NCBI RefSeq assembly: GCF_965641715.1
Contig: NZ_OZ282453.1
DNA: 64,000 nucleotides
From: Escherichia coli
Lineage (GTDB): Bacteria > Pseudomonadota > Gammaproteobacteria > Enterobacterales > Enterobacteriaceae
Strand: one strand, 5' to 3'
The notes beneath the pieces were generated by a model. That model had not been told where the DNA came from, did no database searches, and worked only from the letters and a program-made list of their open reading frames with translations. Made by a program: the position numbers and the translations under genes. Within the stretch, counting starts at the first letter, position 1; every line of letters starts with the position of its first letter. This document shows, in pieces, positions 59,072 to 59,974 of this stretch.

Positions 59072-59974
59072 TTATTGATAAACAAAAGTCACGCCAATAA
59101 TCGATTGCACATTCCCTGCAGTCACCTGCCCTCCGGTACGTGCGTAATTTGCCGTTAATCCCAGACTTACCGCCGAAGTTCCTACTGCTCCTAACGATAC
59201 CGTGTTATTCGCTGGAATAATCGTACCGTTGCGCGTCAACTGTACGCCGACGCCCTGCGCTGGTGAAAACGACGCGGTATTGGTGAAAATCGAGTTGCCC
59301 GCATCTGCGGTTGTGCCGGAGAGGTAATACCCCAGGTTTTGGCTTTTCGCACAATAAACGGTAAGAGGAATTGGCACTGAACCAGGGTAGTCCGGCAGAG
59401 TAACGGTGACATCACGAGCAGAAACATCGCAGCCGCCAGTAGGCACCACCACATCATTATTGGCGTAAATATTCCACACAAACTGGAAATCATCGCTGTT
59501 ATAGTTGTTGGTCTGTCGCAAAATAAGCACGGCAATTAATGAGCCAGCTTTAATCGCCACCCCGCCCGCACTGCTCACAGGCGTCAAATAAAGCGCCACC
59601 GGCCACGGCTTATCCGTTCTCGAATTATAAACAACCCGCGGCGTTTCGCTGGTGGTCGGAAATGGATAGCTACTGCCACTATATTTTACGGTCCCGGAAA
59701 AATTAGATAACACGCCGCCATAAGCCGAGCCTCGTTGCAGTGTGACATAGTCTGTAATGGTTTCCGGATAATCGTTATGGCAAAAGATTTGCGTCGAAAG
59801 ATCTACGACCAGGTTTTGCCCCACATTCACGGCAGGCGCAAGGTTTACATAAACATTAGCGCTGCCACCGCCAATAGGGATAGCGGTACCATTGGCGGTT
59901 TTACAGGCGAATGACCAGGCATTTACCGACCAGCCCATCAGCAGTACAGCAAACAGGGTAATAACTCGTTTCAT
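59072..59974 (-). CDS. fimH: Type 1 fimbrial adhesin (mannose-binding tip)
   Basis: 300-aa ORF MKRVITLFAVLLMGWSVNAWSFACKTANG...; mature residues A27, N70, S78. Confidence 0.95.
   Translation of the reverse strand: MKRVITLFAVLLMGWSVNAWSFACKTANGTAIPIGGGSANVYVNLAPAVNVGQNLVVDLSTQIFCHNDYPETITDYVTLQRGSAYGGVLSNFSGTVKYSGSSYPFPTTSETPRVVYNSRTDKPWPVALYLTPVSSAGGVAIKAGSLIAVLILRQTNNYNSDDFQFVWNIYANNDVVVPTGGCDVSARDVTVTLPDYPGSVPIPLTVYCAKSQNLGYYLSGTTADAGNSIFTNTASFSPAQGVGVQLTRNGTIIPANNTVSLGAVGTSAVSLGLTANYARTGGQVTAGNVQSIIGVTFVYQ

Follow-up and report, generated by a model that had tools for sequence, protein, structure and literature searches.

An intact fimH at the end of the fim operon of an Escherichia coli chromosome encodes the consensus FimH protein

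We analysed a stretch of 64,000 nucleotides of Escherichia coli DNA (contig NZ_OZ282453.1), here called the window. It almost certainly carries an intact fimH, last gene of the fim operon and convergent with gntP, which encodes consensus FimH, an adhesin expected to be of the common low-affinity type. The encoded protein is the consensus, evolutionarily primary form of FimH, that is K-12 FimH with alanine instead of valine at mature position 27. This assignment follows because A27 is the sole difference from K-12 FimH, and K-12 FimH has itself been described as the consensus plus A27V (Dreux 2013, PMC3554634). Consensus FimH as such is already known and there is nothing unusual in its residues. 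Few bacterial adhesins have been studied as thoroughly as FimH, and the window encodes its modal protein form, so that the finding matters little in itself.

The ORF list contains a single long ORF at exactly 59072-59974, on the minus strand, with 300 codons, an ATG start and a TAA stop at 59072-59074. Translated on the plus strand the same interval contains many stops. When all PDB sequences were searched with phmmer, FimH was the best match of the window protein (E=1e-196), with 278 of 279 residues identical to K-12 FimH. Both expected Pfam domains scored above their cut-offs: FimH_man-bind (PF09160) reached 245.7 bits (cut-off 25) over precursor residues 24-168, covering the full model, and the pilin domain Fimbrial (PF00419) reached 32.8 bits (cut-off 25.6) over precursor residues 181-300. 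At the nucleotide level the gene matches the fimH annotated in strain PapRG-06-5 at 100%, and thousands of RefSeq genomes carry the same sequence under the name fimH. NCBIfam returned only sub-threshold matches of window FimH to other fimbrial subunits and no FimH-specific model above its cut-off; the identification therefore rests on Pfam, PDB and the RefSeq annotation, all of which bear out the naming of the feature as FimH in an earlier note on this DNA. The interval is a real, intact fimH of the E. coli chromosome and no chance ORF. A pseudogene or an inactive binding pocket was rejected, since the ORF and N135 are intact. The features of the locus are collected in Table 1.

Table 1. Positions of fimH, its parts and its neighbors in the window
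Feature	Position	Strand	Basis
fimH CDS, type 1 fimbrial D-mannose-specific tip adhesin	59072..59974	-	ORF list, PDB phmmer, Pfam, nucleotide match
Signal peptide, 21 residues, MKRVITLFAVLLMGWSVNAWS	59912..59974	-	mature PDB chains start at query residue 22
Lectin (mannose-binding) domain, mature residues 1-158	59438..59911	-	Pfam FimH_man-bind; pocket and gate residues present
Linker and pilin domain, mature residues 159-279	59075..59437	-	Pfam PF00419; PDB alignments; C161 and C187 present
Codon 27, GCC = Ala (K-12: GTC = Val)	59831..59833	-	codon reading, K-12 comparison
Codon 70, AAT = Asn	59702..59704	-	codon reading
Codon 78, AGT = Ser	59678..59680	-	codon reading
fimH typing region, 489 nt (gene nt 64-552, mature residues 1-163)	59423..59911	-	fragment length documented (PMC5856829); limits attributed to Weissman 2012
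Gene nt 795 = A (Gly244 GGA, synonymous; common allele G)	59180	-	codon reading
fimG, tip fibrillum subunit	59994..60503	-	NCBIfam FimG equivalog, 289 bits (cut-off 220)
fimF, adaptor subunit	60510..61043	-	Pfam Fimbrial, 99.3 bits; fimF annotated at the same position in related genomes
fimD, outer-membrane usher, 878 aa, intact	61050..63686	-	Pfam PapC_N, Usher, PapC_C
fimC (chaperone), 3' end, cut by the window end	63753..64000	-	translation ends ...TPKMTGVME*; annotation of genome L004
gntP, permease, convergent downstream neighbor	57554..58897	+	NCBIfam GntP equivalog, 907.9 bits; K-12 gene order
GC-rich hairpin (9-bp stem) and T run between fimH and gntP	58908..58928	.	terminator scan, sequence

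The precursor begins with MKRVITLFAVLLMGWSVNAWS, enters the mature protein with FACKTANG and continues with FACKTANGTAIPIGGGS. Solved mature FimH chains (1KLF_B and 3JWN_H, 279 aa) align to query residues 22-300, so that mature residue 1 is F22 and cleavage falls after NAWS, where the earlier note had put it. The A-W-S preceding this site fits the -3/-1 rule of signal peptidase. In the source strain, too, cleavage would be expected before Phe1, judging from the mature PDB chains. A miscounted cleavage site, named in the earlier note as the error that could overturn its numbering, was checked against the PDB numbering and rejected, as the two agree. The pocket, gate and cysteine residues of FimH are established in the structural literature. 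In the window protein the mannose pocket residues F1, N46, D47, D54, Q133, N135, D140 and F142 are all found at their expected mature positions; the tyrosine gate (Y48, I52, Y137) and the cysteines C3, C44, C161 and C187 are likewise complete. PDB alignments show the pilin domain to be identical to the solved pilin domains of K-12 and F18.

Under this PDB-consistent numbering the codons GCC, AAT and AGT confirm the residues A27, N70 and S78 that had been read from the sequence. At the other commonly discussed mature sites the protein carries S62, G66, A106, A119, T158, V163, R166 and A202; those at 62, 66, 158, 163 and 166 are the consensus states, and no pathoadaptive replacement relative to the consensus was found, examples of such replacements being A27V, S62A, T158P, V163A, R166H and changes at G66. 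The description of 27, 70 and 78 as recurrent pathoadaptive sites is only partly supported. Residue 27 is positively selected, as are residues 62 and 163, and all three shift the equilibrium between tense and relaxed states (Kalas 2017, PMC5302871). N70S/S78N, on the other hand, is a fixed clade marker and not a recurrent hot spot (PMC3554634). Of the two major FimH clades one is the consensus, termed "most common and evolutionarily primary", and the other, defined by N70S + S78N, is almost entirely B2 (Dreux 2013, PMC3554634). With N70 and S78 the window protein lies outside this B2-associated S70/N78 clade.

Positive selection at position 27 and the variation of 70 and 78 between clades could be taken to mean that the window encodes a pathoadaptive FimH of UPEC or AIEC type, in which the three residues were selected to alter mannose binding, and one study cited in PMC3554634 did argue for V27A as a pathoadaptive change in Crohn's isolates from children. 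The window protein, however, has zero substitutions relative to the published consensus. Dreux et al. also found A27 in most natural variants, non-AIEC and non-pathogenic strains included, and considered it unlikely to be pathoadaptive (PMC3554634). Of 5426 complete E. coli genomes, 4470 match the window exactly over the 45 nt of codons 67-81, which contain N70 and S78, and the hosts of isolates that encode the same protein include baboon, panda, platypus, pig and cattle. We therefore regard a pathoadaptive variant as extremely improbable and rejected it as largely refuted, the protein being unchanged from the consensus. A27, N70 and S78 are ancestral majority states without pathoadaptive change. 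For annotation the lesson is to take A27/N70/S78 as "consensus, no pathoadaptive change", the valine at position 27 of K-12 being the derived state.

The consensus assignment agrees with the abundance of the protein: its exact sequence is encoded on 1000 or more public contigs. In two genomes, one with a 100%-identical fimH and one with a fimH that differs by 1 nt, the gene product is annotated as WP_000832227.1. Around codon 27 an identical stretch of 45 nt occurs in 2186 genomes, a number that is a lower bound for A27, since silent differences also abolish the match.

Upstream of fimH, on the same strand, fimG, fimF and fimD are intact, and fimH closes the operon behind fimD, fimF and fimG, an order shared with K-12 and RefSeq genomes. 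The start of fimG equivalent to that in K-12 is at 60497; mature window FimG is identical to the K-12 protein, with two substitutions (C4R and V9L) in the signal peptide. In several genomes RefSeq/PGAP gives fimG as a 147-aa 'fimbrial protein' without signal peptide (L001 19538-19981, L003 1038-1481, L004 20491-20934). This looks like a start-codon annotation artefact, because the full fimG ORF of 167/169 aa is intact in these genomes, as it is in the window. On the other side of fimH, the hairpin in Table 1 is likely, by consensus match only, to serve as a shared terminator of fimH and gntP. A REP-like element lies just upstream of the hairpin. The convergent spacer between fimH and gntP (58898-59071) measures 174 nt versus 242 nt in K-12, which has ~81 nt where the window has 12.

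The near-identity to structurally and biophysically characterised FimH proteins suggests how the window protein would work. After removal of the 21-residue signal peptide, FimC would chaperone the pilin domain to the FimD usher, and at the fimbrial tip the N-terminal strand of FimG would complete the pilin-domain fold. The lectin domain would bind terminal mannose via its invariant pocket. Contacts between lectin and pilin domain would hold this pocket in a low-affinity tense state, from which tensile force would bring about the high-affinity relaxed state (catch bond). Mannose-sensitive adhesion and catch-bond behaviour are probable at a distance of one to two residues from the K12 and F18 proteins measured in PMC4786642. 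Among urine isolates 169 of 254 had the combination A27/S62/V163, and among isolates from healthy faeces 28 of 33 did (Kalas 2017, PMC5302871). The mannose affinity of this combination in a tip-like complex was low, as measured in an S70/N78 background (UTI89, A62S; PMC5302871). The allele is expected to be of the low-affinity, shear-enhanced type common to commensal and many urinary isolates, and not a high-affinity pathoadaptive variant.

A strain may also carry fimH and still make no type 1 fimbriae, or none that function. Precedents are O157:H7, with a fimS deletion and a pocket mutation, and Shigella, with inactivation of fim. Two observations would fit such a loss here: the window holds only part of the fim operon, with fimS, fimB, fimE and fimA outside it, and the flanking 24.5 kb find some of their best matches (99.0-99.1%) in O157:H7 and O55:H7 genomes, whose typing region is 1 nt away. 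Against this, none of the genes fimH, fimG, fimF and fimD is disrupted, and the mannose pocket, N135 included, has the wild-type residue at every position. Expression was judged from one draft contig only (L007; GCA_965259455.1, contig CBDGWI010000004.1), which is 100% identical to window positions 51050-64000. There fimB, fimE, fimA, fimI and fimC are full length, and the invertible element fimS is complete (7587-7900, 314 bp), with inverted repeats of 9 bp (TTGGGGCCA/TGGCCCCAA). Aligned to the MG1655 reference record of K-12 it runs colinear and in the same orientation, and with only a 1-nt gap over 1.2 kb the alignment shows that the 16-bp fimS deletion of O157 type is absent from the contig. 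A loss of type 1 fimbriae in the strain is thus very unlikely, and a functional consensus FimH remains our preferred reading.

The earlier note had suggested that allele typing could help to place the source strain. The fimH typing region reportedly spans gene nt 64-552, limits attributed to Weissman in 2012. A typing fragment of 489 nt is documented (PMC5856829). All 60 best-listed genomes were 100% identical to the window over this region. When the 4986 matching genomes were sampled at even intervals of rank, identity was 100% at ranks 1 and ~85 and 99.8% at rank ~170. From these ranks we estimate that some 85-170 of the 5426 complete E. coli genomes have an identical typing region. The genomes sharing it come from humans (including human ETEC/STEC), baboons, pandas, dogs, pigs, poultry, platypus and echidna. 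Because the region is common to many unrelated lineages, fimH type alone will not place the strain. The allele places it only weakly, and typing adds a label with little resolution. For genomes with a typing region identical to that of the window we searched the literature for a fimH type and found none for TUM18780, WP2-S18-ESBL-07, XH990, KCJ3K291, 88COLEC, Z0117EC0040 and AMSCJX02, nor for PapRG-06-5, STEC409, TW10590, Santai, 13TMH22 and 2014C-3307.

The full-length allele is far rarer than its typing region. Gene nt 795 lies outside the latter and is the sole base that separates the full-length window allele from the common one. Among the 5426 complete genomes the full 903-nt fimH is 100% identical in one, PapRG-06-5, a Gambian baboon isolate of ST8525; every other top match checked has the synonymous G at nt 795 (Gly244). 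The exact 41-mer around nt 795 occurs in none of the GTDB species-representative genomes. A look-up of the exact FimD protein led to NCBI draft assemblies of the same lineage. Besides L007, the drafts L006, L008, L009 and L011 are 99.97-99.99% identical to the window. L006 to L009 carry an identical fimH including A795, and the aligned part of L011 excludes fimH.

For comparison of the flanks, pieces of 24.5-25 kb were aligned by megablast against the 5426 complete RefSeq E. coli genomes. Over 39500-64000 the top complete genome was PapM-32-1 (ST8532), which shares the typing region and reaches 99.1%, level with O157:H7 and O55:H7. For window positions 1-25000 no complete genome exceeded 98.0%, the best being strain ST2747. 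On these alignments the source lineage is without a close relative among the complete RefSeq genomes. PapRG-06-5 itself shows 98.86% identity to the window over 24.9 kb, with 306 differences, and flanking divergence from the window is ~0.9-1.1% for the two typing-region sharers that were aligned over long stretches.

Identical fimH within flanks diverged by about 1% would be explained if the fimH segment were a recombination import, in which case the allele would report the history of ~1 kb and not that of the strain. In the comparison with PapRG-06-5 there are zero differences over 59058-60050 (993 nt), where ~12 would be expected from the regional mean, and this run over fimH hints at a recombination tract. 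Divergence is, however, patchy throughout the region, with for example 1 difference in 57500-58499, so that a 1-kb identical run is weak evidence when taken alone. We consider the import quite possible, though we lean against it; it would add to the consensus fimH as best explanation and not replace it. A more specific version is somewhat less probable still and is offered tentatively: the A795 allele may mark a lineage that lacks close representatives among the 5426 complete genomes, and its fimH tract of ~1 kb may have been exchanged with unrelated commensals such as PapRG-06-5. If the tract was exchanged by recombination, fimH typing would misplace the strain.

Elsewhere in the window, genes were noted in passing that belong to other systems. 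A GmrSD-family type IV (modification-dependent) restriction enzyme of 697 aa with an extra C-terminal DUF5655 is encoded at 26385-28478 (-), as judged from Pfam (GmrSD_N, GmrSD_C, DUF5655) and PADLOC (Orf5, HEC-06, mREase_IV). It is directly preceded by an EcoAI-family type I hsdR-hsdM-hsdS set at 20051-25776 (+). Together these genes form an 'immigration control region' with a content unlike that of K-12, and no ORFs of mcrBC size were seen in this region of the window. At ~3600-14900 (+) a run of ORFs matches 4-hydroxyphenylacetate (hpa) catabolic genes, hpaB among them, to judge by how the best-matching genomes are annotated, and 41972-47212 (+) encodes an intact inverse autotransporter of 1746 aa, IatD. 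To our knowledge neither the hpa genes nor IatD is part of the K-12 layout of the region; in other E. coli the two belong to the ordinary accessory content.

Compared with named FimH proteins, window FimH is identical at the protein level to the consensus (PMC3554634; WP_000832227.1; UniProt Q83TY4), and its nucleotide copy differs by the synonymous A at nt 795. The exact A27/N70/S78 protein was not among the solved structures found in our PDB search. With K-12 FimH (MG1655 b4320; PDB 1KLF, 1QUN, 4XO9, 5MTS) it shares 299 of 300 residues, and leader, pocket, linker, pilin domain, operon position and the gntP neighbor are all the same. Position 27 is the sole difference from the K-12 PDB sequence (1KLF, 1QUN, 4XO9). 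The MG1655 gene has 11 nucleotide differences from the window, 10 of them synonymous and the remaining one coding (V27 in K-12, A27 in the window). FimH of the faecal strain F18, whose sequence is also that of the UTI89-A62S construct (PDB 3JWN, 4XOD, 5JQI), agrees with the window in 277 of 279 mature residues. The two have A27, S62 and V163 in common, whereas F18 carries the B2-associated clade marker S70/N78 in place of N70/S78. Its tense-state, low-affinity and catch-bond behaviour has been characterised (PMC5302871, PMC4786642). Between K12 and F18 FimH the only changes are Val27Ala, Asn70Ser and Ser78Asn, and the catch-bond mechanism is conserved (Sauer et al. 2016, PMC4786642). By its residues, window FimH lies between these two thoroughly characterised proteins.
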